Shown here piece by piece: positions 16,804 to 52,720 of a DNA stretch of 64,000 nucleotides. The notes beneath the pieces were generated by a model that saw nothing but the letters and a program-made list of their open reading frames with translations, had not been told where the DNA came from and made no database searches. The position numbers were made by a program, and so were the translations under genes. The DNA lies in assembly GCA_023475025.1 (NCBI GenBank), contig JAMCWB010000030.1, forward strand, positions 1,853-65,852, read 5' to 3'. Source of the stretch: Gammaproteobacteria bacterium. GTDB taxonomy: Bacteria; Pseudomonadota; Gammaproteobacteria; Pseudomonadales; Pseudomonadaceae. Position 1 is the stretch's first letter. Each line of letters begins with the position of its first letter.

Positions 16804-16880
16804 GCACCCGTAGCTCAGCTGGATAGAGTACCGCCCTCCGAAGGCGGGGGTCACAGGTTCGAATCCTGTCGGGTGCGCCA
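16804..16880 (+). tRNA. tRNA-Arg (anticodon CCG)
   Basis: Cloverleaf read by hand: acceptor GCACCCG/CGGGTGC, anticodon stem CCGCC/GGCGG with loop CTCCGAA, T-arm ACAGG-TTCGAAT-CCTGT, and an encoded CCA. Confidence 0.9.
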
Positions 16881-29168: not shown

Positions 29169-29252
29169 TAGTTACTCGGCACATGCGATAGTTGCCGAAA
29201 AATACAACCGGGGATCTTGATACTTTTACTTTCGAATTGACCAAAACGATGC

Positions 29253-30149
29253 TTAGCGCATTACCTTGTTCCAGTCGATGCCATAGCCAGCGGCGTCCAG
29301 CTCACGAGCAAGCGCTTGTTTCCAGCCGCCACTTTTATCCATGTTTTCCCACACCACTCCGGCAAAATCGCTCGGAATCTCAAGCTCCCCACTTTTCAGT
29401 GCACAGACCCGCTCCCGCCCCAGTCGACCTATGAAATAGCCCAACTCCAGCAATACGTTCTGTCTTGCTCTGAGTTCCGGGGTACCACCCTTTACGCACC
29501 CTTCGTCATCCGGCGTTAGCAACACAACAGCGAACCCGACATCACTGTGGGCGACCACCTTTTCGATGATGGTGCGCCCCTGGTTGGCTTGTTCATGCAG
29601 GATGATGGCTTCCAGGCCCATGCGCTCAAGGAACCGCGCAACCGACTCGCGTGCACCATCATCGTGGCCGTGGACGATAAAAACCTTGCTTGAAAAGGGG
29701 AGCTTAAGCGTAGTACCCGTATCGCCACGAGAATTCACATAGCTCTTATAGTCGCGCACAAAAGGAATAATAAGCTGGCCAGTGAGGGTATGAATTCCAG
29801 CTATGACCTTGTTCCCGGAATGAAAATAATGGAGGCAAAAATTGATCGCATAATCAGGATCTGCAGCCAGCTTTTGTATTAAAAGCAGCGTCAAACCTAA
29901 TGATGCTTTATGATCATCCGGCCAAGCCAGCTTGGCGCTTCCCATCATGCCAGTTGCGGCTTTTCCACTTTCCTCAAGGAAAGCCTCCAAATCGACGCCA
30001 GCAGTAAGCTCGTCATTAAAAGGCGCAAGATCAGAATGCTTAAGCAGCTGGGCCAGCTTGCGCAAGGGACGCTCGAAAGTCTGCATCTGAGAATTTTGCA
30101 GATCCAGTACGGCATGGTTGATTTCAGTAAAAAGATCCTGACCCATCAC
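29253..30149 (-). CDS. Two-domain protein with C-terminal bacterial TIR-like nucleotide-binding domain
   Basis: The C-terminal half reads KVFIVHGHDDGARESVARFLE..VVLLTPDDEG..RARQNVLLELGYFIGRLGRERVC..PSDFAGVV. This matches the TIR-like family seen in Cap12/PycTIR effectors. The N-terminal 150 aa are unrecognised. Confidence 0.7.
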   Translation of the reverse strand: MMGQDLFTEINHAVLDLQNSQMQTFERPLRKLAQLLKHSDLAPFNDELTAGVDLEAFLEESGKAATGMMGSAKLAWPDDHKASLGLTLLLIQKLAADPDYAINFCLHYFHSGNKVIAGIHTLTGQLIIPFVRDYKSYVNSRGDTGTTLKLPFSSKVFIVHGHDDGARESVARFLERMGLEAIILHEQANQGRTIIEKVVAHSDVGFAVVLLTPDDEGCVKGGTPELRARQNVLLELGYFIGRLGRERVCALKSGELEIPSDFAGVVWENMDKSGGWKQALARELDAAGYGIDWNKVMR

Positions 30150-30430
30150 TGACCTCCTTCTGATTGCAATCTGGCTTCTGCTGCTTTTTGCAGGATCTGC
30201 TCCCGATATTTTTCCTTCATCTGAATAACTAACGGCCCGACAATCGAATTGGACGCATATTCCGTAACCCGTAGATCAATAGTCTGGCTAATCTGATTGA
30301 TCGCTGACTCAATACTGGAAGGGTCATAAGGGTTAAATTTTACAACCCCAAGTTCACCATCCAACTCGGAGAGAGCACGCTGAGCGTCCTCGAGCTGTTT
30401 TTGCAGCTTATCAAAACCTTTGATTTTCAT
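30146..30430 (-). CDS. Small helical protein, unknown function
   Basis: Track ORF 30146..30448 (TTG). ATG 30430 is preferred because of AGGAGG 6 nt upstream. The stop overlaps the TIR-like start by 4 nt. Confidence 0.6.
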   Translation of the reverse strand: MKIKGFDKLQKQLEDAQRALSELDGELGVVKFNPYDPSSIESAINQISQTIDLRVTEYASNSIVGPLVIQMKEKYREQILQKAAEARLQSEGGQ

Positions 30431-30503
30431 TGAATGCCTCCTGGCCAATTGATGTTCGACTCACTTCTCACCTTCCTAAGTAAAGGCGAGACACTGAGTT
30501 CTA

Positions 30504-30520
30504 AGCGAACATCGTGCCAA
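30504..30520 (-). promoter_or_regulatory. Sigma-54 (-24/-12) promoter P2
   Basis: The minus strand reads TTGGCACGATGTTCGCT, with correct GG-N10-GC spacing. It is about 60 nt upstream of the small-protein ATG and matches P1 at 16 of 17 positions. Confidence 0.65.
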
Positions 30521-30590
30521 AATATAAAACCCAATAAAAACAGCGCGTTGCGCAAGCGACGCATAGCTCTCCGCTTCACACATAACAACA

Positions 30591-30612
30591 AATATTACAT
30601 TTTGGTAATATT
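30591..30612. promoter_or_regulatory. AT-rich inverted repeat about 85 bp upstream of P2 (candidate enhancer/UAS)
   Basis: AATATTAC-N6-GTAATATT, followed by a third TATTAC. Confidence 0.35.
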
Positions 30613-30646
30613 TATTACCGCCACACAGTTGCCTTGGGAGGCGGCG

Positions 30647-34385: not shown

Positions 34386-35450
34386 TCAATTGTCCTGTTG
34401 TGGTGTATCTGATTGGTATCGGGCGGCTGCTTCCTTCAGGCGCAGCACTCTTTCCCGTTCGCGCTCCAGTTCCCGTGCCAGTTCCTCTTCAGTGGGCAGG
34501 GCTGTGAGGTATTTGGAGGCGAACAATTGCTTGCTTTCGCTGAGCACGGAGTATTTGGCGACGGTGTTATTGCGCTCGCTGCACAGAATCAGCCCGATGG
34601 TCGGGTTGTCGTCGGGGCGGCGTTTGTGTTCTTCATACATGCGCACATACATGTCCATCTGGCCCACGTCCTGGTGGGTGAGCTTGTGCATTTTCAGGTC
34701 GATCAGCAGAAAGCATTTGAGATGAAAGTTGTAGAACACCAGATCGATGAAGTAGTCGCCGTCATCGGTGCGGATGCGTTGCTGGCGTTCGACGAAGGCA
34801 AAGCCCTTGCCCAGCTCCAACAGGAACTGCTGCAGGTTGGAGATGATGCCCTGTTCGAGGTCGCTTTCCTGCCAGGTTTTATCCGGCAGGTTGAGAAAGT
34901 CGAGGATGTAGGGGTCGCGCAGGTAATGTTTGGGATCATCCTGCAGCGGCTCGGTTTTCTCCTGTGCTTCCTGCTCGACAGTGGACTTGTCCTTGCTGGC
35001 GAGCAGGCGCTCGTAATACAGCGTGCCGATCTGGCGCTCCAGTGCGCGGACGCTCCAGTTCTCATCCGCCGCCTCATCCGCATACCACTGCCTGGCAGCA
35101 GGGTTCTCAATACGCATCAGGGTTCGATAGTGGCTCCAGCTCAAAACACTACGCAGTGTGTAGTGTTTTGGGAAAGTCAGGTAGAACTGCCGCATATTGC
35201 GCAGGTTGCCCACATCAAACCCTTTGCCAAACTCGGCCTGCAGGCGCTCTGACAACTGTTTGAGCTGCTGCTTGCCGTACTCTGCCCGCTGCTGCCCTTG
35301 CTGCTCCTGCTCTACAATCAAGCGGCCGATATGCCAGTAGGCCTGAACCATGTGCTGGTTGACCGCCTGCCTGACCTGCTGGCGGGCCTGGGCAATGACT
35401 TCTGCTATGGCCTGATAAAGCGTGCCCGGCACCAGATCCTTACTGGCCAT
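34386..35450 (-). CDS. YhcG/DUF1016-type PD-(D/E)xK nuclease-like protein
   Basis: Start placed at ATG 35450 (AGGAGG 7 nt upstream) within track ORF 34386..35489. The core reads [20 protein letters not shown]. The gene is inserted between hsdR and hsdM. Confidence 0.8.
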
Positions 35451-38400
35451 GCTGAGCCTCCTGCTTGATGAATGGTTCAAGCACTGCAATCAGATCGCCG
35501 ACGTCATCCGGCGTGAACACACCGTCGATGCCCTCATGGGAAATGCTGTCGAAGGGAGGCTCATAGAGTTTGTCGACAACGATGCTGCCGTGTTGGGCTA
35601 TATAGTTTTTCAGCAGGTTCATAAAGCGCACCTGCTGGGCGGTCAGCGTCGGGTGGTTGTGCAGGAAGCGCTTGAAGTGCTCCTCGATGGCCTGCGGGTC
35701 AAGCCCGATAATCTCGCGCACGGTCAGGTGCAGCTGATCGGCAGTGCGCCCGTAGAACTCATTGAGCACCTCCAGGCTGACGCCGGGGTGGCTGGTGAGG
35801 ATGGTCGAGGTCAGGGTTTTCAGCTCCGGCTCGGCAATCGGCTCACCCTGGCGGATTTTCTGCAGGGTCGGGTTAGCAGCCAGCATGGCGTCAAGGATGT
35901 CCTTAAGCCGACGGCGGTAGATCATGGCTTCGTTGGCGCCAGCGATATACACCTGACGCTCATTGTTCTGGATGTTGCCATCACGGGTGCGCGTGCTGCC
36001 GATGTCGTAGCCGGGGCCCGTGCCGCTCTGGCGGTATTTCATGATGCTGCGCAACTCCTTGCGGGCATGCTCCAGCTTGGCAATGCTCGGCTGCTGCCAG
36101 AACGCAGCACTGCGTACTTCGGCAATCACTGCATCCTTCTGGCGCACGGCATTGATGTTCACTGCGAGCCTATCCAGCTCGGCCAGCAGTTCGGTCTTTC
36201 CGTCCTCGAAGCAACTGGCCTGCACTACCAGACAGCACTGAATACCGGCGATCAGCTTGTCGAAGGCCGTCGCGTGCTTGTCACGCAACACCCGGGCGGA
36301 CATCAGCGGGGCAATGGTGTTGCTCAACAGGTGTTGGGTTTTGCTGTCGAGTGTCTTGAGCATCGGAGTTTGTTGCAGCTGGTGCACCACCCGCAGCTCA
36401 CGCTTAACCGCCACACTGGTGTCCGGCAGATCATTGATGTCTGCCTGCAGCAACTCGACGGCCACATCAAAGGCGTCAGCGTGGTTGGCCTTGAGCGCGG
36501 CCTGCGCCAGTTGCAGGCGCGCTTCGAAGGTGGTCTGCAGCAGCGACTTGCTGCCGGTGTCCTCCGGCTCCAGGTATTCCTGCTCGAAGAAATCGAAGTT
36601 GCCGTAGTGATCGAAAATGAGGAATTCGCTCTTGTGCTTGCCCGGCCCAAACAGATTGGGACGCAGGCGGGTGCCGCGGCCGATCATCTGCCAGAATTTG
36701 ACCCAGCTCTTCACTGGTTTGGCAAAGACCAGATTGACTACCTCGGGTACGTCGATGCCGGTGTCGAGCATGTCCACCGAGATGGCGATACGGAAGTCGT
36801 TGTCCGGTTTCTTGAATTCCTTGATCAGTGTTTCCACATGCGGAATGGCGTTGTGGATCACCTTGCAGACCTTGCTGCCATATTGCGGATACAGCTTGCA
36901 GAACAGTTTTTCCAGGTGCTCGGCATGATCCTGACGCTGGGCGAAGACGATGGTCTTGCCCACCAGTGAGCCAGTGTCATCCTGGATGCCATTATTGATC
37001 AGGTTCTCGAGGATGATGCGGTCGGTGTCTTCACTGAAGATCTTGCGGCCGATGTCCTTGCCGGCGATGGTGGTCTGCCGGGCTTCTTCCTCTCCCAGGT
37101 CCTCTTCCAGCTGACGTTGCTGTGCTTCGCTGAGCTGGCTGTAATGGATGCCGTCACGCAGAAAATCGGTGGTCAGGTCCTTGACCCGGAAGGGCACCAG
37201 ATAGGGTGGCTCGTTGTTGATGGCCGCATCCAGCCCGAATTCAAAGGTCGGGTCGGTGGTTTCACAGTCGAACAGGTCGAAGGTATTGCGACTGATGAAT
37301 TTAACCGGTGTCGCGGTCAGCCCGACCTGCATGGCATCGAAGTAATCAAACAGGTCGCGGTACTTGTTGTAGATGCTGCGATGGCTTTCGTCGGCGATGA
37401 TCAGGTCGAAAAAGCCAACATCCAGCTGGGCAAAGCGGTTCATCATGCCCGGATAGGTGGCAATGAAGATGCGAGCGGTCTGATCCACCTTGCTGGTTTC
37501 ACCAATGACGCAACGCGGCTCACTGGGGAGATTCTGCTTGAAGGCATCATCGGCTTGCACGCGCAGTTCCTTGCGATCACAGAGAAACAGCACGCGCTTG
37601 GCCCAGCCGGTACGCAGCAGTAATTCCGCTAGGGCGATGGCAACACGGGTCTTGCCCGTGCCAGTGGCCTGAATGATCAGCGCCTTGCGCCGCTGGCTCT
37701 GGAAGTGCGCGGCGACAGTCTTGATTGCTTCGATCTGGTAGGGCCGATCGGCAATGCTCAACTGCGGGTTGTGCTTTTCCAGCGCCTGGACCCGATATTG
37801 GCGCTGGTAAATCAGGTATTCCAGGCTGTCCTTGCTGTAGAGGCCGTACACCGGGCGATAGGTGTTGTACTGGGCATCGTCCCAGATGAAGGTTTCATAG
37901 CCGTTGCTATAGAAAATTACTGGCCGCTGCATGCCCATGCGTTCAAAACCATCGGCATACATACGCGCTTGTTCACGTCCAGCTTGCAGGCTGACGTTGC
38001 CAGACTTCTTCGCCTCGATCACGGCGAGTGGCTGGCCGTTGTCGCCCCACAGCACATAGTCAGCACGACCTTTACCGGACGGGTTATCCGGGAAATCCAC
38101 CTCGACTTCATGCCCTACCTGCGCAGGGTTAGCCACATCCCAGCCGGCCTGCAGCAGCATCGCATCAATCAATAGGGTTCGGGTCTTGGCTTCATTCCAC
38201 TGCAGGCTGTCGGCTACCTGCTGGCTCTCGCGTTGGCGTTTCTGTTGATCGGGGCGGGCCGGCGGCTCAAGCTTCTCAATATTGCGGGTGCGCTGCTGTT
38301 CCAGCTCGGCAATCACCTGCTGCAAGGCTTCCTGCTTCTGGGACAGCTCTTTTTCGTAATTGGATACCGACTGCTGCAACCCCTTGATGGCCGCCGTGGG

Positions 38401-38835
38401 GTCGGCAACCTCAACAAACTCGGGAATGGTGTCGTGCTGCACACCGTAGTATTTGACGGCCATATACATGGCCAGCTGGTGCGATGTCTTCAATGCCAAC
38501 TGGGCATTGCGCAGGTCGCCTTCCGCACCATGGGCGGCGTCATTGCCCTGGATACGCAAAAAATTGATCTGATGGATCAGCGATTTGCTCACGCAGTCGG
38601 CAAATACCGGGTTTTTCACCAGATCGTAAAAGCTGGCCTGGGGCAGACGTGGAAGCGTCTCTTCCTTGTAGATGGTTTTGGTCAGCTCTTCGGCAAAGCT
38701 GCGCAACCGGGTCAACGCGCTGCCGGGGTCGACATGCAGTACCGCTTCGGCCAGCCCGCCAAGATTGGCCAGCACTTCATTGCCGGGGCGCAGAAATTCA
38801 AAATTCACTGATGTCATAAAGGCTATTGTGTCCAT
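35440..38835 (-). CDS. hsdR: Type I restriction enzyme R subunit with N-terminal DUF4145-like module
   Basis: Nuclease GRADYVLW...VIEAKKS, helicase QATGTGKT and ADESHRS, and an EcoEI-R-type C-terminal domain. The N-terminal 110 aa carry RIQGNDAAHG. The start is uncertain (38835 or Met7 at 38817). Confidence 0.9.
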   Translation of the reverse strand: MDTIAFMTSVNFEFLRPGNEVLANLGGLAEAVLHVDPGSALTRLRSFAEELTKTIYKEETLPRLPQASFYDLVKNPVFADCVSKSLIHQINFLRIQGNDAAHGAEGDLRNAQLALKTSHQLAMYMAVKYYGVQHDTIPEFVEVADPTAAIKGLQQSVSNYEKELSQKQEALQQVIAELEQQRTRNIEKLEPPARPDQQKRQRESQQVADSLQWNEAKTRTLLIDAMLLQAGWDVANPAQVGHEVEVDFPDNPSGKGRADYVLWGDNGQPLAVIEAKKSGNVSLQAGREQARMYADGFERMGMQRPVIFYSNGYETFIWDDAQYNTYRPVYGLYSKDSLEYLIYQRQYRVQALEKHNPQLSIADRPYQIEAIKTVAAHFQSQRRKALIIQATGTGKTRVAIALAELLLRTGWAKRVLFLCDRKELRVQADDAFKQNLPSEPRCVIGETSKVDQTARIFIATYPGMMNRFAQLDVGFFDLIIADESHRSIYNKYRDLFDYFDAMQVGLTATPVKFISRNTFDLFDCETTDPTFEFGLDAAINNEPPYLVPFRVKDLTTDFLRDGIHYSQLSEAQQRQLEEDLGEEEARQTTIAGKDIGRKIFSEDTDRIILENLINNGIQDDTGSLVGKTIVFAQRQDHAEHLEKLFCKLYPQYGSKVCKVIHNAIPHVETLIKEFKKPDNDFRIAISVDMLDTGIDVPEVVNLVFAKPVKSWVKFWQMIGRGTRLRPNLFGPGKHKSEFLIFDHYGNFDFFEQEYLEPEDTGSKSLLQTTFEARLQLAQAALKANHADAFDVAVELLQADINDLPDTSVAVKRELRVVHQLQQTPMLKTLDSKTQHLLSNTIAPLMSARVLRDKHATAFDKLIAGIQCCLVVQASCFEDGKTELLAELDRLAVNINAVRQKDAVIAEVRSAAFWQQPSIAKLEHARKELRSIMKYRQSGTGPGYDIGSTRTRDGNIQNNERQVYIAGANEAMIYRRRLKDILDAMLAANPTLQKIRQGEPIAEPELKTLTSTILTSHPGVSLEVLNEFYGRTADQLHLTVREIIGLDPQAIEEHFKRFLHNHPTLTAQQVRFMNLLKNYIAQHGSIVVDKLYEPPFDSISHEGIDGVFTPDDVGDLIAVLEPFIKQEAQHGQ

Positions 38836-40860: not shown

Positions 40861-41094
40861 ATGACTACTCAATACCTAACCACCGACGAGCTTGCAGCTC
40901 GCATCAAATATGACGCCAGAACAATTCGCGACCGACTCAAGGATAGCGTTTTGCTTGAGGGCGTTCACTACATCCGACCCTTTGGTGGACGCAAAATTCT
41001 TTATATCTGGGAAGCCATTGAGCGAGACATGGGCGGCACATCCAACAGCCCTCTTGCCATCCCCATGGCCAACGGAGGTGTCATGCATGGCTAG
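40861..41094 (+). CDS. AlpA/excisionase-family small DNA-binding protein
   Basis: ATG 40861 after AAGGAG. The sequence LTTDELAARIKYDARTIRDRLKD..GVHYIRPFGGRKILY is typical of Xis/AlpA HTH proteins. It overlaps the int start by 8 nt. Confidence 0.75.
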   Translation: MTTQYLTTDELAARIKYDARTIRDRLKDSVLLEGVHYIRPFGGRKILYIWEAIERDMGGTSNSPLAIPMANGGVMHG

Positions 41095-42292
41095 TATCCG
41101 TGTACGAGAACAGACAGGAAAACTGTTCTTCGACTTCCGTTACCGTAACAAACGATGCCGTGAGCAAACGGCCCTGGATGACACACCTACCAACCGGCGC
41201 AAGCTGGAAGGGATTTTGAAAAAGGTCGAGGCCGAAATCACTCTGGGGACGTTCGAGTATGCTCGGTATTTTCCGGGCAGCAAAAATGCCCAAAAGTTTG
41301 GCGAGGCCGCGACAGCTCAGGCGCAACTCAAGCACCACGCAACGCCACTTTTTAGTGACTTTGCCGATACCTGGTTTGCCGAAATGCAGGCTCAGTGGCG
41401 ACGCTCGCACATTGATACGGTGGCAGGCACTTTGCGCGCCTACTTGAAGCCAGAATTTGGTGAGAAAGAGGTCGGCTCCATCACCAAGGCAGAGATTTTA
41501 TCTTTCCGTTCCCAGCTCGCCAAAGTCAGAAACGGTAAAGACAAACCGCTGTCAGCAGAGAGAATCAACCACATCATGACGCCTTTGCGCATGATCCTTA
41601 ACGAAGCAGCCGACCGGTACGAGTTTACCTCACCCTATCAGGGCATCAAATCGCTAAAGGTACCGCGGACTGATGTAGAGCCGTTTACCGTCGACGAGGT
41701 CAAGCTGATCCTGCAAACGGTGAGGGCCGATTTTAAAAACTATTACACCGTGCGCTTTCTGACCGGAATGCGCACCGGTGAAATTGATGGGCTGCAGTGG
41801 CAATTTGTCGACTTTGAACGCCGACAAATTTTGGTGCGCCAGGCTCTGGTCAGAGACGAGCTGGTTTACACCAAAAATGATGGATCATTCCGCACCATTG
41901 ATATGTCCGGTCCAGTCTATGACGCACTGCAGGAGCAGCATAAAGCGACCGGTCAATTCGACTACGTGTTCTGCACGCGCAACGGCAAGCCTATCGCCCA
42001 CCGCAATATCACCCAACGGGTGTGGTACCCCTTGTTGCGGCACCTGGGACTACGTAAACGGCGGCCCTATCAAACCCGCCATACCGCAGCAACGCTTTGG
42101 CTGGCAGCAGGCGAATCGCCGGAATGGATTGCCCGCCAAATGGGCCATACCACCACCGAAATGCTGTTCCGCGTTTATTCCCGCTATGTGCCCAACCTCA
42201 CACGCCGTGACGGCTCTGCCATGGAACGTTTGCTGGTCAGTGAATTCAACCAAGCCAGCCATTCCGATGCTCAGGAGAAAGAACATGCTTAA
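41087..42292 (+). CDS. int: Tyrosine integrase with N-terminal arm-binding (DUF3596-type) domain
   Basis: ATG 41087 after GGAGG, within track ORF 40892..42292. The N-terminus reads IRVREQTGKLFFDFRYRNKRCRE. Catalytic motifs are GMRTGEI, TRHTAATLW and VYSRY. Confidence 0.88.
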   Translation: MASIRVREQTGKLFFDFRYRNKRCREQTALDDTPTNRRKLEGILKKVEAEITLGTFEYARYFPGSKNAQKFGEAATAQAQLKHHATPLFSDFADTWFAEMQAQWRRSHIDTVAGTLRAYLKPEFGEKEVGSITKAEILSFRSQLAKVRNGKDKPLSAERINHIMTPLRMILNEAADRYEFTSPYQGIKSLKVPRTDVEPFTVDEVKLILQTVRADFKNYYTVRFLTGMRTGEIDGLQWQFVDFERRQILVRQALVRDELVYTKNDGSFRTIDMSGPVYDALQEQHKATGQFDYVFCTRNGKPIAHRNITQRVWYPLLRHLGLRKRRPYQTRHTAATLWLAAGESPEWIARQMGHTTTEMLFRVYSRYVPNLTRRDGSAMERLLVSEFNQASHSDAQEKEHA

Positions 42293-42530
42293 GATATCCG
42301 CTCACACCTGCCGCCGCCTTGCTAGAGCCATCCAGGTTGCATTGCGAATCCCCGAGGGAGATGCGCTGGTCTTTTTGATTGGACGCGGCCACGAAGCATC
42401 CAATCTGGATGCGCTGGAGACCTGGGTGACTGAAACATTGCCACAACTGGAAGAAGAGTGTGGCAAGGCGGTGCTGCCCTATTTGCTTGATCGCCTGGAA
42501 AGCACTCTGGACCAGTGGGGGGCAGCCTGA
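42285..42530 (+). CDS. Small hypothetical protein (81 aa)
   Basis: ATG 42285 in the frame of track ORF 41778..42530. It overlaps the int stop by 8 nt and the next gene by 1 nt. Confidence 0.45.
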   Translation: MLKISAHTCRRLARAIQVALRIPEGDALVFLIGRGHEASNLDALETWVTETLPQLEEECGKAVLPYLLDRLESTLDQWGAA

Positions 42531-48011: not shown

Positions 48012-49211
48012 GTGAACTTATGGCAGTACTGCTGGACGCACTCTATGACTAAATCTAAAACTGCCACTGGGCGCTTCGACACCGACGACGTGACGAAACG
48101 TGTCGTATGGACTCAGGCTGCAGGCCACTGTGAGCTGTGTGGCACCGACCTCATGTACGACTACCGGGCAGGTAAGCCCATGAACTGGGGAGAGGTTGCT
48201 CACATCCTGCCAGCGAGTCCAAAGGGCCCCCGGGGTCGGTCTGACCATGACGAAGCAAAGGCTGCGTCGCTTACCAACGACACAGCCAATCTCATGCTTC
48301 TCTGCCCTGGCTGCCATGACAAAATTGATCGGGATGCTGATGGATATCCAGAAAGCGATCTTAGCGGCCTGCACCAAGCGTACCTGGAGCGAGTCCGGCT
48401 AGCGGCAACCACTCCTGACGGTGGAAGAGCGATTCCAGTTATTGTCCAAAGTCAGCATTTCGCAACGAACAACGACATCCCCGTTCGTGATCTGTTGGTG
48501 GCAATGTCCTCTGAGGGACTGACGGCATTCGATCATCCCATCAAGATCACTTTTCCAGCCCCAAGCCATCGTGGCCGGGATGACCACTACTGGCAGAGCA
48601 TCAAGGACAGCATTCAGCACGAATTAGAGCAGCAGTTAAAACGCCGCGGAGGAGCATGTGGTGACGCTCCTGCGCTTGCCGTAGTGGGCGTGGCAGACAT
48701 CCCAGCGTTGATCATGCTGGGACAGTCCTTAGGTGATCGATCCAAGCGCCTGCTTTTCTCGTTCAACCGTGAGCACCAACTACGTTGGCCTGACCAGTCA
48801 GCCGAACCTCCCGAGTTTGTGTTCACCCCGCCCTCGGATGGAGAAGGCCCACTGGCTCTGGTATTGTCTATCTCCGCGCAAGTCCCAGCTCGCGATGTCG
48901 AAGAGGCACTACCTGGTGCGCGTATCGCTGGGCTGAGCATCCCAGTGCCCAGCTATGCGATGGTTCAGAACCGTCGCGTGATACACGCGTTTCGCGACGC
49001 TCTACAAAAGCACTTGAGCCGGCTTGAGGCCATGACTGCAGACACAGTCCATGTGTTTGCGGCGATTCCCGCTGCTTTGGCTATTGAGTTCGGGGCCTTG
49101 CTTACTACGCAACATCAACACGCTTACCTGATCTTCGATCGAGATAAAGACAACCAAAACAGGTTCACGCCAACACTACAGTTGGGCCACCAAGCCCAGG
49201 AGGTTCGTTGA
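48012..49211 (+). CDS. cap5: CBASS effector Cap5-like: HNH endonuclease fused to SAVED domain
   Basis: HNH motifs CELCG...EVAHILP...LLCPGCHDKID followed by about 270 aa of SAVED-like C-terminus. GTG start at 48012 (alternative ATG at 48045). 4-nt overlap with the CD-NTase gene. Confidence 0.75.
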   Translation: MNLWQYCWTHSMTKSKTATGRFDTDDVTKRVVWTQAAGHCELCGTDLMYDYRAGKPMNWGEVAHILPASPKGPRGRSDHDEAKAASLTNDTANLMLLCPGCHDKIDRDADGYPESDLSGLHQAYLERVRLAATTPDGGRAIPVIVQSQHFATNNDIPVRDLLVAMSSEGLTAFDHPIKITFPAPSHRGRDDHYWQSIKDSIQHELEQQLKRRGGACGDAPALAVVGVADIPALIMLGQSLGDRSKRLLFSFNREHQLRWPDQSAEPPEFVFTPPSDGEGPLALVLSISAQVPARDVEEALPGARIAGLSIPVPSYAMVQNRRVIHAFRDALQKHLSRLEAMTADTVHVFAAIPAALAIEFGALLTTQHQHAYLIFDRDKDNQNRFTPTLQLGHQAQEVR

Positions 49212-50464
49212 TGTCCATGAGCAATGAACAGACCAAGCGCGGAAGCTGGGAGCACTTTCTGCTCCGCGCCGCGAAGGAGATCTCACTGTCCGAATCACAG
49301 TACGAGAAGATCAACGACCGATACTCCCAGCTTGAGAAGATTCTCAACGCTTCCGACAATCCACTTCTGGCGGAGGCGCACATTTTTGTCCAAGGCTCCA
49401 TGCGCCTGAAGACAACGATCAAACCCGTTTCTGGCGCCCCAGAGGATCTGGACACCATCGACGCGGACGCCATTATTTGGCTCCCTCATGCACAGGGTGC
49501 TAGAGCTAGAGAGGTTCTGGATGCAATTGAGGAACGCTTCAAGGCTGGCAGCCGTGTCCAGGAGGAAATCAAGCAACTACGCCGAGGCATCCGGATCATC
49601 TATGCTGACGAAAACCCTGGATTCCACATTGATGTCACGCCCGCGCGAGCCATCAATGGGAATTCTCAAGGCAATGGCGAAGGCAAGCTGGAAGTACCGG
49701 ATCGAGAGACTGGGTGGAAGGCGAGTAGCCCGATCCCCTACTCAAAGTGGTTGCAGGTCGCGTCAACGCAACCCATCTCCTTGGCGGAACATATGGCTGT
49801 CGCGAAAAGCCAGCGCGCTTTTGATGCCGCCACTCAGGATCCGCTGCCGCAGTATCAGGACTATCTCGATCAAGACCCACTTCGGGCAACGATCAAGCTG
49901 CTGAAGCGTCATCGGGATGAGTGGGCCATCCGCACCAAAAATACGGATCATCGTCCGATTTCGGCAGTCATCACCACTCTCGCTACCCACGCCTACGTTG
50001 ATGTGGCGAAAGAGTCCCAGTCGACGCCGCTAAGGCCGCTAGATGCCATCCTCGAAATCGTCCGAAGGATGCCGGATCACATTAAGTACCGGGGCAACGA
50101 ATGCCAGGTTTGCAACCCGGCAGATAGCGGCGAAAACTTCGCTGAAAAATGGAATAGGCCGCTCGATGGACATCGCTACCGCCGGGCATTCCAGGAATGG
50201 CACGAGAATGCCAGCGTATCGGTCTCGCTGGGACTTGAAAGCTACGAGTCCGCAGAAGCGTTTGCCAAGGCCGTGAACGAAAACTTCGGCATTGGTCCTA
50301 CCCTCATTTCGGCAGTTAATAGCGAAATTCCGCCCAACTGGACGATGCCTGGCCGGCCTGATGGCACCACCCGAAACGCCACATTAATGGGCACTATGTT
50401 TGGAGGCGTGAGCGGGACTGCGAGCTCTCAGGAGGATGTGAGGCCAGTTGGGCGTCTTGGTTGA
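49208..50464 (+). CDS. CD-NTase (cGAS/DncV-like nucleotidyltransferase)
   Basis: Motifs QGSMRLKT, DIDADAI and HIDVTPA fit the GS...DxD...D pattern. The protein ends in ...VGRLG with a terminal Gly. Confidence 0.75.
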   Translation: MMSMSNEQTKRGSWEHFLLRAAKEISLSESQYEKINDRYSQLEKILNASDNPLLAEAHIFVQGSMRLKTTIKPVSGAPEDLDTIDADAIIWLPHAQGARAREVLDAIEERFKAGSRVQEEIKQLRRGIRIIYADENPGFHIDVTPARAINGNSQGNGEGKLEVPDRETGWKASSPIPYSKWLQVASTQPISLAEHMAVAKSQRAFDAATQDPLPQYQDYLDQDPLRATIKLLKRHRDEWAIRTKNTDHRPISAVITTLATHAYVDVAKESQSTPLRPLDAILEIVRRMPDHIKYRGNECQVCNPADSGENFAEKWNRPLDGHRYRRAFQEWHENASVSVSLGLESYESAEAFAKAVNENFGIGPTLISAVNSEIPPNWTMPGRPDGTTRNATLMGTMFGGVSGTASSQEDVRPVGRLG

Positions 50465-52232
50465 TCAGACGGATACGTCTCTGCAGCGTGGTATAGCCGC
50501 GCTGCGAGGTGCTCTTGGCGAAGATGCCGCACAGGCACTGCTTCAGCCTGCGGTCGCTCGGACCGGTGAAGCTGCGAGCTACTACTTTCCTCTGCCAGTT
50601 GACTATACGGGCACGGAGCGGCGGCTACGCATCAGCTTTCCCAAGAATTTCCCCCGCAGTGGATTGAGGCTTACAGTCGAGCCCTCGCCATGGCTTGTAT
50701 GGCCTCACGCGATGGAAGTCGGGCTCTGCCTGCATGGTTTCCAGGAGCGCCCAGTGATGGGCACCCCTGAATACGTGGTGTCGGATAGCCTGGCGCGGTT
50801 AGGCAAGATCGTAAATTTGTCCCGGATGGGTTCATGTGCGGCTGACCGAGATGCCGAATTTCGTCGCGAAATCACATCGTACTGGTCTAGGCAGCAAGGG
50901 CTATCTCTACAGAACCTTATCCTTTTGGATCGCCCTCAAGTTGCCTCGAAGCTGTATGCCCTTAGCGATCCTCGACAGACGTTACCATCTGGCCAAGAAA
51001 CAGTCTGGCTCGCCACGGATTTGGCATCCCTGAAAAGACACTGCCGGCGGACGATTGGCCGATCTCCAAGGATGCGAGCACCGGAGGCCCCAGGATTCTA
51101 CGCAAAGCTTCGGAGCTATCCGGACCTGCGCCTTCCCGCTCCTGAGCTACTGCTCACATGGCTCTTGCCGCATCTCGCTCCTAATGACAGAACGCAGCTG
51201 GTGGCTTGGTTCAATGAGCGTAGCTCACTGCCCAACCGCTGGATCGCTTTGGAGCTCCCTGGGGATGCCAGCGCCCCAATCTACTGCCTGAACGTTCGCG
51301 CATACGGCCCACAGCTGGATCGAGGATCGAGGTTTTACCTGCGATCAGCGCGGCGCCGGCCTGCAGTTGCAGTCAATCATCCCCCAGTTCTGATCCGAGC
51401 AACGGCGCTGGATGTGCTGGATCGAACAGAGATTTTATCCCGTGACCTCAGTGGCGTGGCGCAGAAACTAGAAGGGGCTCGCGTCGTTTGCGTTGGGGTA
51501 GGTTCGTTGGGTAGCACCGTTGCCCTACAGTTGGCGCGTTCGGGTGTTGGCCATCTGACACTCATTGACCCAGACCACTTGGTCTCGGCAAATCTTGGCA
51601 GACATGTGCTCGGTGCCGATGATCTCGGTCTCCCCAAGGCAGAAGCGCTTCAGGAGAAAATTCGCAAAGACCTGCCCACTACGGAAGTCGCGGCGTTTGC
51701 CACCTTCGCCGAAGTGGTGATGTACAAGAATCCCGAGGTTTTTGATAAAGCGGATCTGGTAGTGGTTACTACCGCTGACTGGCAGTCGGAGGTGGCGTTG
51801 TGGGGGGCCAAGTCGAATGGCACCTCTTGGGGTTTACTCCAGGCCTGGAGTGAGCCTCATACACAGGTGGGGCATGTGCTCCTTGCACCACCTGGTGCAT
51901 TTGATGCTCGGGGCCTATTCACAGACAACGGTGATTTTAAGCACAAGTTCACCGAGTGGCCGGAAGGTGGGGTCGTCGCCCTTCCCGCCTGCGGGGAGAG
52001 TTTCATCCCAGGAGGTTCTCTTGGGATGGCGAACATTGCTTCGATGGTTTCTCAAGCTGCATTACGAGTGTTGAGTGGCATCATCGACAGCCCGAGCTGG
52101 GTCAGCAGCATTAATAGACCTGATGACGTGGTTAGGCTGGGAGGTAACTACCTCGGGCCTGAGCTACCTGCCGGAATGCAGCAGGCCCAGCTGGAGCGCG
52201 ATTGGCCGAAAGCATCGGAGAAAAGTAAATGA
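50448..52232 (+). CDS. cap2: Cap2 (E2-like + E1/ThiF-like fusion)
   Basis: Rossmann motif CVGVGSLGSTVALQLARSGVGHLTLIDPD..NLGRH and an N-terminal E2-like region. TTG start after GGAGGA. Confidence 0.8.
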   Translation: MGVLVDQTDTSLQRGIAALRGALGEDAAQALLQPAVARTGEAASYYFPLPVDYTGTERRLRISFPKNFPRSGLRLTVEPSPWLVWPHAMEVGLCLHGFQERPVMGTPEYVVSDSLARLGKIVNLSRMGSCAADRDAEFRREITSYWSRQQGLSLQNLILLDRPQVASKLYALSDPRQTLPSGQETVWLATDLASLKRHCRRTIGRSPRMRAPEAPGFYAKLRSYPDLRLPAPELLLTWLLPHLAPNDRTQLVAWFNERSSLPNRWIALELPGDASAPIYCLNVRAYGPQLDRGSRFYLRSARRRPAVAVNHPPVLIRATALDVLDRTEILSRDLSGVAQKLEGARVVCVGVGSLGSTVALQLARSGVGHLTLIDPDHLVSANLGRHVLGADDLGLPKAEALQEKIRKDLPTTEVAAFATFAEVVMYKNPEVFDKADLVVVTTADWQSEVALWGAKSNGTSWGLLQAWSEPHTQVGHVLLAPPGAFDARGLFTDNGDFKHKFTEWPEGGVVALPACGESFIPGGSLGMANIASMVSQAALRVLSGIIDSPSWVSSINRPDDVVRLGGNYLGPELPAGMQQAQLERDWPKASEKSK

Positions 52233-52720
52233 CGGCGATCGCGTGGCAATGGACCTGGCCCGGGCTAAACACTCCTCTGTTGGTATCGCAGGAGGTTGCG
52301 AGCCTGCTGGAGAGCTACAGGCAGAAGCACTTTGATGTAGAGCGTGGGGGGCAGCTATTCGTCGACCCTTCAAGCGTGGCCGGACTGGTACTGGCATTGG
52401 CTACTCCCCCTCATAACGATGATCGGGCTGGTAGGACCTGGCTGGATTTGAATGCTCGTCGCTGTCGAAAGGAAATTGAGCAGGCTAATGCCGCAGGTCT
52501 CCGCCTGGTAGGCTACTGGCATACCCACCCGCAAAGCATTCCTATGATCTCCCCCACGGATATCGGGAGCTTTTCCAGGTTCGCCGCGCACTACACCCAA
52601 GAGCTGCCGCACCCGCTGGCAATCATCGTGGGCAACTCCAGCAGCCACGAAGGCATAAAGGCTTGGTCTTTCAGGGATGGGCGCTATGTTGAAGCTGTTT
52701 GGGGCAGTTGGCCAGGTTAG
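52229..52720 (+). CDS. cap3: Cap3 (JAB/JAMM isopeptidase)
   Basis: ERGGQLF and the JAMM motif GYWHTHPQSIPMISPTD. 4-nt overlap with cap2. Confidence 0.8.
   Translation: MTAIAWQWTWPGLNTPLLVSQEVASLLESYRQKHFDVERGGQLFVDPSSVAGLVLALATPPHNDDRAGRTWLDLNARRCRKEIEQANAAGLRLVGYWHTHPQSIPMISPTDIGSFSRFAAHYTQELPHPLAIIVGNSSSHEGIKAWSFRDGRYVEAVWGSWPG

Follow-up and report, generated by a model that had tools for sequence, protein, structure and literature searches.

Bacterial immunity is well known to employ TIR-like NADase effectors, and the NADase activity of TIR domains requires TIR-TIR assembly. In Cap12 (TIR-STING) and PycTIR, a sensor part drives this assembly and the NAD+ depletion that goes with it. Abortive-infection proteins are usually built from an invariant front end and exchangeable toxic back ends, and in CapRel(SJ46), DSR2 and autoinhibited TIRs of the SARM1 type, a regulatory domain restrains a toxic enzyme and doubles as the trigger sensor. 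Here, we analyze a two-gene cassette in a 64,000-nucleotide stretch of DNA from a gammaproteobacterium of the family Pseudomonadaceae (assembly GCA_023475025.1, contig JAMCWB010000030.1, positions 1,853 to 65,852 of the forward strand), the whole of which we call the window. On the minus strand, a 94-amino-acid open reading frame (ORF; 30146-30430), predicted to encode an all-helical protein of the YuaX family, is followed by a 298-amino-acid ORF (29253-30149) for a protein with a helical N-domain (residues 1-150; 29700..30149, minus strand), a linker and a TIR-like domain (residues 155-298; 29256..29687, minus strand). Reasoning by analogy with other TIR effectors, we lean modestly toward a model in which the cassette is an autonomous, mobile abortive-infection or defense unit, with YuaX and the N-domain as the sensor and regulator of a toxic TIR-like NADase.

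The C-terminal domain is matched by Pfam PF10137, the CAP12/Pycsar effector TIR domain, over residues 155-271 (E 4e-39; 133.8 bits against a cut-off of 24.7), spanning positions 1-118 of the 119 in the profile, and PF10137 is the only domain that the precomputed annotation of a newer Pfam lists for the large-protein family. When PDB sequences were searched with a profile made from 38 homologues of the large protein, only Cap12 TIR-STING (9lmq, 7un8) and PycTIR (8jsj) matched, all on the TIR part. E235, the Glu of NVLLELG in the motif RARQNVLLELGYF (codon GAG, 29445..29447, minus strand), aligns with the Glu of NVVFEFG in Cap12, which, from the TIR-STING literature, we take to be catalytic there, making E235 the candidate catalytic residue. 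It is invariant in 38 split-form homologues, in 53 homologues in which the two proteins are fused, and in an orthologue on the F plasmid. We also built AlphaFold2 models of the window large protein (predicted local distance difference test, pLDDT, 72) and of the fused homologue P0284 (pLDDT 86.5). For both models, the top Foldseek matches in the PDB were the TIR-STING structures 9lmq, 9lmr and 7un8 at probability 1.00 (best E 3.7e-4 with the window model, 3.3e-5 with the fused one), followed by the TIR domains of SPARTA, SARM1, MyD88 and ThsB; 7un8 superposes with the better model at a root-mean-square deviation (rmsd) of 3.3 Å over 118 columns. By alignment and by predicted structure, the C-terminal domain is a member of the Cap12/PycTIR-type TIR-like family with the flavodoxin-like TIR fold. 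An earlier note, made from the letters of this DNA alone, had proposed this family, and the hidden Markov model (HMM) and profile-to-PDB searches, the fold and the conserved Glu all bear it out: the domain is TIR-like on structural comparison.

A locus scan using one genome per GTDB species returned 80 loci, 45 of which encode a full-length relative of the large protein (51-79% identity); a YuaX gene lies directly upstream in all 45. The YuaX gene is not present in the roughly 35 loci that share the TIR-like domain only, and the proteins encoded there have unrelated N-termini and mostly lack a conserved upstream small ORF. YuaX, the N-domain and the TIR-like domain are joined in one polypeptide of about 404 residues (PF27363 + PF10137) in over 100 clusters at 90% identity, most of them from Alphaproteobacteria. 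These natural fusions are Rosetta-stone evidence that both window proteins act together, and we regard it as almost certain that the gene pair is one functional unit, in line with the self-contained module suggested by the earlier note. Both ORFs are conserved as proteins across dozens of genera and are therefore not chance ORFs. At one locus, in a Rhodobiaceae metagenome-assembled genome (MAG; L039, 2433-3629), the small and large frames appear to run together through a 150-residue read-through; this merger, intermediate between the split and fused forms, may reflect either a sequencing error or a recent fusion.

When the N-domain alone served as query, an exhaustive HMMER search recovered 245 clusters at 50% identity, many of which have the YuaX sequence fused ahead of the N-domain. 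With YuaX fused to it or encoded by an overlapping upstream gene, the N-domain also carries C-terminal domains other than PF10137: a canonical TIR_2 (P0249, locus L082), a Hypoth_Ymh domain with the RNPKAH Rx4H HEPN motif (P0266), DUF4145 (P0271, L083-85), a weak match to DUF5955, and several domains without a family match. Hypoth_Ymh and DUF4145 are, we presume, HEPN-type RNase families. The YuaX gene is present, though uncalled, at locus L086, and YuaX was not detected with the two most distant N-domain relatives. The swapped C-terminal slot argues that the TIR-like domain is the terminal effector, a role that we consider highly probable, and that YuaX and the N-domain form the regulatory or sensing part. 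Moreover, as YuaX is kept across different effector domains, it is unlikely to be an active-site antitoxin specific to one fold. Compared with the window proteins, median identity falls from 87% in the TIR-like domain to 66% in the N-domain and 60% in YuaX, a gradient that fits a faster-evolving sensor attached to a conserved effector.

Two further observations concern these sister loci. Upstream of the most distant N-domain relative examined (P0362, locus L087), an overlapping 107-residue ORF (128-451) is not detectably YuaX-like and bears an odd precomputed ThiC_Rad_SAM label; it may be a diverged or replaced partner. On three metagenomic contigs (L083-L085), a divergent SLATT_5 gene (1144-1794; also 372-1022) lies about 1 kb upstream of YuaX and the N-domain-DUF4145 gene, and may be a further defense neighbor or partner.

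By analogy with solved TIR effectors, NAD+ is probably the substrate of the TIR-like domain. A different chemistry, in which the domain cleaves another N-glycosidic substrate (nucleotides or nucleic-acid bases) or makes a signal like Thoeris ThsB, strikes us as improbable. It draws on the kinship between the TIR fold and nucleoside 2-deoxyribosyltransferase (NDT) and N-glycosidase folds, which is visible in our own Foldseek searches of the PDB and BFVD, where DNPH1, BcmB and viral NDTs were also returned, and on the fact that PF10137 proteins are still annotated merely as 'nucleotide-binding protein'. The nearest solved relatives by both sequence and structure, however, are NADase effectors. 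Against a signal-generating role in particular, the sister architectures place terminal effectors such as HEPN domains in the same position, and the sole partner, a 94-residue soluble helical protein, is an unlikely downstream effector.

The other two parts of the cassette are less familiar. Residues 1-150 of the large protein matched nothing in Pfam, NCBIfam, PADLOC, PHROGs or the profile search of PDB sequences, and so stay without assignment, as the earlier note had them. Five HMMs of the PADLOC candidate system PDC-S35 match the large protein (E 1.4e-71 to 9.6e-39), with aligned residues running only from about 108 or 150 to 297. In the model of the fused homologue, the N-domain has a pLDDT of 90-98 and the YuaX region consists of three long predicted helices. 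Foldseek searches of both models against the PDB, and of the fused model against BFVD, gave no credible fold match for the N-domain or YuaX; besides the TIR, flavodoxin-like and NDT matches, only long, high-rmsd alignments were returned. For the small protein we found 119 homologues of 93-97 residues, one of them 98% identical, all with the precomputed Pfam annotation PF27363 'YuaX', and scans of NCBIfam, PADLOC, PHROGs and a Pfam copy lacking PF27363 gave no match. Very likely, then, the small protein belongs to PF27363, an assignment that comes through the annotation of its homologues and through its 46% identity to the YuaX-type F-plasmid protein WP_000538310.1. The earlier note had called it unassigned, which still holds for its function but not for its family.

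Two apparent relatives of these parts were discarded. Secondary phmmer matches hinted that YuaX might be a duplicated piece of the N-domain, but BLASTP returned nothing and hhalign of the family alignments gave a probability of 0.4%. The repeat proteins P0340 and P0360, which match the N-domain 10-11 times, are low-complexity tandem repeats whose per-stretch E values lie above 0.01, and the matches are spurious.

The cassette is widespread and mobile, its family spanning Alpha-, Beta-, Gamma- and Deltaproteobacteria. The full-length protein is found at 77-80% identity in Vibrio, Yersinia, Pseudomonas, Halomonas, Bordetella, Xanthomonas and a Desulfuromonadaceae MAG; such identity across these genera indicates horizontal spread. 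In a tblastn search with the small protein, 995 plasmids matched (592 from Klebsiella, 314 from Escherichia). On the F plasmid (NC_002483.1), a 96-residue gene (41216-41506; WP_000538310.1) overlaps the gene for a 299-residue 'nucleotide-binding protein' (41496-42395; WP_000963206.1), with full-length identities to the window proteins of 46% and 48%, respectively. The F pair is convergent with pifA, 50 nt away, and pifC; pifA is PADLOC PifA at E 3e-290. The same layout of pair, pifA and pifC is found on Klebsiella IncF virulence plasmids, among them one of hypervirulent K. pneumoniae. We considered PifA as a general neighbor and dismissed it: its presence is confined to the IncF lineage, and it was not seen at the window cassette or at other genome loci. 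Of 5426 complete E. coli genomes, 317 carry the F-type pair, F' laboratory strains included; among the 317 are NEB Turbo, NEB5-alpha F'Iq and NCM3722. The pair is also on 985 PLSDB plasmids. A chromosomal-type cassette, with about 69% DNA identity to the window, is present in seven E. coli genomes; the copy in E. coli MS 115-1 (L081, 11994-13177) is part of a prophage, with a retron Ec67-family reverse transcriptase (RT)/endonuclease gene about 1.4 kb away, a site that looks like a prophage defense hotspot.

Collectively, these observations are consistent with a model of the following kind. In the uninfected cell, YuaX and the N-domain would keep the TIR-like effector inactive. Once they sense a trigger, in the simplest case a phage-derived protein or another infection cue, they would release or assemble the effector, bringing the TIR-like domains together. 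The assembled domains would hydrolyze NAD+, as in TIR-STING/Cap12, and NAD+ depletion would arrest or kill the cell before the phage cycle ends. The NADase chemistry, the autoinhibition and activation through YuaX and the N-domain, the phage trigger and the abortive outcome are all inferred from TIR-STING, PycTIR, SARM1 and other TIR NADases; phage defense is probably the main role. Direct sensing is the simplest assumption because no second-messenger synthase travels with the cassette. More tentatively, YuaX and the N-domain may form an effector-independent sensing module that detects a phage component directly, much as a bacterial pattern-recognition unit would, and switches on whichever toxic domain is attached. 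In that case, F would carry, in its copy against pifA, a second phage-exclusion determinant that has been overlooked.

Every solved relative of the TIR-like domain is a cyclic-nucleotide-activated effector, and a complete type II CBASS-like (cyclic-oligonucleotide-based anti-phage signaling system) operon lies about 18 kb from the cassette (48012-52720, plus strand). It encodes, all on the plus strand, an HNH-SAVED effector (Cap5; 48012-49211), a SMODS CD-NTase (49208-50464), a ThiF/E1-like protein (50448-52232) and a 163-residue ORF (52229-52720). One could therefore imagine that the N-domain, with YuaX, binds a second messenger made by this CD-NTase or by another cyclase, in the manner of Cap12 or PycTIR. 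We consider this very unlikely. The window CBASS has its own HNH-SAVED effector and is for that reason unlikely to feed the TIR-like protein. The Pfam scan revealed no STING, SAVED or CARF-type domain in the cassette, and the NCBIfam Cap12 equivalogs match only the TIR part, far below cut-off (NF050171, 44.6 bits, and NF050172, 34.7 bits, against cut-offs of 450, about tenfold short). No cyclase family recurs among 149 neighbors of 40 loci, and the cassette moves alone onto plasmids and prophages. The absence of an adjacent cyclase, which the earlier note had remarked on, holds where adjacency is concerned.

A more serious competitor to the defense model, although we still think it unlikely, is that the cassette is a toxin-antitoxin or addiction module that stabilizes plasmids, prophages and islands, with defense secondary; the TIR-like domain would be the toxin, and YuaX an antitoxin that disappears or is degraded once the element is gone. 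The gene order, with translation of the small upstream gene coupled to that of an overlapping larger gene for a toxic-type domain, is what such a module would show. The cassette also occurs almost only on mobile elements, and its copies on some 985 plasmids, including F and the K. pneumoniae virulence plasmid, lie close to ccdAB and vapBC. However, YuaX tracks the N-domain and not the toxic domain, being found with at least five unrelated C-terminal domains, which is unexpected for a direct active-site antitoxin. In more than 100 clusters it is fused to its partner, so that the two cannot be degraded differentially in those lineages, although CapRel and other toxin-antitoxins are known in fused form. 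Finally, no DNA-binding domain was detected in YuaX in the Pfam, NCBIfam and PADLOC scans. The earlier description of the pair as toxin-antitoxin-like may accordingly still apply in a broad sense, but a classical direct antitoxin is unlikely.

Several points weigh against the defense model. The N-domain and YuaX resemble no known sensor, and the 'sensor' label comes from the architecture alone. AlphaFold2 does not place the domains confidently relative to one another, with predicted template-modeling scores (pTM) of 0.50-0.52. The faster change of YuaX and the N-domain may merely reflect weaker constraint. Given the kinship of the TIR and nucleoside 2-deoxyribosyltransferase folds, a substrate other than NAD+ is conceivable. 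An addiction role would account equally well for the occurrence of the family near ccdAB and vapBC on low-copy plasmids, and we found no published evidence of toxicity, NADase activity or phage defense for this family or for PDC-S35 in the literature.

Within the window, the cassette is part of a minus-strand defense island of about 21 kb beside tRNA-Arg(CCG) (16804-16880), the island region being 16804-38835. The island encodes, in order, a DUF2357 protein, an AAA_5 protein (McrB-like, matching PDC-M26A), a 523-residue protein without assignment, an MkoA-like AAA_11/AAA_12 helicase (Mokosh) and the TerY-P triad, then the cassette, Mrr, HsdS, HsdM, a YhcG/DUF1016 nuclease and HsdR; a tyrosine integrase follows at 40892-42292 (plus strand). 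HsdR (35440-38835, minus strand) has a weak N-terminal match to DUF4145 (E 5.6e-5), a family that is also one of the alternative effectors of the YuaX/N-domain module. In a search for transcript evidence, the window sequence was found only in metagenomic DNA runs.

The downstream triad of vWA (TerY), PP2C phosphatase and Ser/Thr kinase is complete and on the same strand, and the spacer that separates it from the cassette (29169..29252) is short: 84 nt to the TTG start of the vWA ORF, as the earlier note had stated, or 99 nt to its first ATG. Neither a terminator-like site or hairpin nor an inverted repeat was found when this spacer was scanned, and for this reason local transcription may read through from the cassette into TerY-P. 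These features would suit an accessory or regulatory subunit of the triad, co-transcribed with it, as the earlier note had entertained, yet the wider distribution makes such a role extremely unlikely. In 44 of the 45 full-length-relative loci there is no TerY, PP2C or kinase homologue, the complete triad is found in none of them, and the one weak vWA match lies 4 kb off on the opposite strand. The cassettes of F and of the MS 115-1 prophage, among others, also occur without the triad. Mrr, HsdS and HsdM are not conserved neighbors at the 45 loci either. As the TerY-P, Mrr and Hsd genes are not conserved neighbors, we conclude that the cassette is autonomous.

The same picture emerges from the wider surroundings, where no recurrent partner gene was found among the 149 proteins flanking 40 loci. 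The flanking families seen more than once are genes of mobile elements or integrative and conjugative elements (integrases six times; transposases and resolvases) and mad3/mad8, together with families of two members each: an aldo/keto reductase, a GNAT acetyltransferase, and transcription-regulator and unknown-function domains. BrxL, ShosA, AriA, Old, GajA, a retron RT, PsyrA and a type IV restriction enzyme occur as single neighbors.

The junction of the two genes fits coupled expression. The small gene begins with ATG, preceded at 6 nt by the Shine-Dalgarno sequence AGGAGG (30437..30442, minus strand), and its stop codon (30146-30148, minus strand) overlaps the start of the large gene. With the GTG at 30149 as start, the large protein has 298 residues and the overlap is the 4-nt GTGA, so the two ORFs and the overlap reported in the earlier note are found as described. 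With the ATG at 30146, the protein has 297 residues and the overlap is 1 nt (TGATG). A second Shine-Dalgarno sequence, GGAGG, within the end of the small gene (30153..30157, minus strand), lies 6 nt from this ATG and 3 nt from the GTG. Because homologues of the large protein start MAQD or MMAQD and the GGAGG is better spaced, ATG 30146 appears at least as likely a start as GTG 30149. Under either, translational coupling of the genes is predicted from the sequence, and most related loci show the ATGA/TGATG junction as well.

Upstream, the 216-nt intergenic region between mrr and the small gene (30431..30646) is A+T-rich and probably holds the promoter; a simple sigma-70 scan of it found no minus-strand promoter. 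This region contains an A+T-rich inverted repeat, AACAAATATTAC/GTAATATTTATT (30587-30616), with 12-nt arms and a 6-nt spacer, which could be an operator, part of the promoter or a weak mrr terminator.

Beyond the earlier note, the family is already catalogued as PDC-S35, the small protein is very likely a YuaX member, and F orthologues stand beside pifA. We found no description or test of the gene pair in the literature, defense-discovery papers included but their supplementary tables mostly not covered, and no described function of the F-plasmid pair. The window subfamily stands apart as a variant with two genes or with three fused domains; its N-domain is not in Pfam, and its YuaX is merely named there. 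YuaX and the helical domain of about 150 residues would constitute a sensing or regulatory module for which we found neither a known fold relative nor literature, and its reuse with several toxic domains marks a general immune 'front end'. The pair is carried by about 985 enterobacterial plasmids, including hypervirulent Klebsiella virulence plasmids. Since it also lies beside pifA on classical F, it is present in many laboratory F' strains, and its function is testable with standard E. coli phages. For annotation, the single-gene PDC-S35 entry of PADLOC should be split, with the YuaX subfamily treated as a two-gene or fused system.

Compared with Cap12 (TIR-STING) and PycTIR, the window protein has the same PF10137 subfamily, fold and conserved Glu, and by analogy the same logic of sensor-driven assembly is likely. 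It differs in lacking STING, SAVED, a transmembrane (TM) sensor and an adjacent cyclase, and has a helical domain and the separate YuaX instead; as it fails the Cap12 equivalog cut-offs, it is not Cap12. PDC-S35 is, to our knowledge, defined by an HMM match only and is treated by PADLOC as a single-gene candidate system, whereas the window subfamily always comes with a YuaX partner or fusion. Other PDC-S35-type proteins stand alone, with unrelated N-termini and no conserved small partner; we looked for homology between those N-termini and the N-domain and found none. The F-plasmid pair (NC_002483.1, 41216-42395), whose large protein matches PDC-S35 too, is orthologous to the window cassette and has the same order of overlapping genes, but it represents a plasmid lineage convergent with the T7-exclusion gene pifA, and the window cassette has no PifA neighbor.

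Other likenesses are looser. The resemblance to CapRel(SJ46), DSR2 and SARM1-type proteins is conceptual, with no sequence or structural kinship, and the cassette exists in nature in both split and fused forms. Thoeris (a ThsB TIR protein with ThsA or other effectors) is, like the cassette, a two-gene operon with a TIR-superfamily domain in defense islands. The partner in the cassette, however, is a 94-residue soluble helical protein without an effector, TM or ligand-binding family match, and because HEPN domains occupy the same slot in sister proteins, the TIR-like domain is best read as an effector and not as a Thoeris-type signal generator. With type II toxin-antitoxin systems, the cassette shares an adjacent, coupled pair of a small and a large gene, but YuaX co-varies with the N-domain and is often fused to it.

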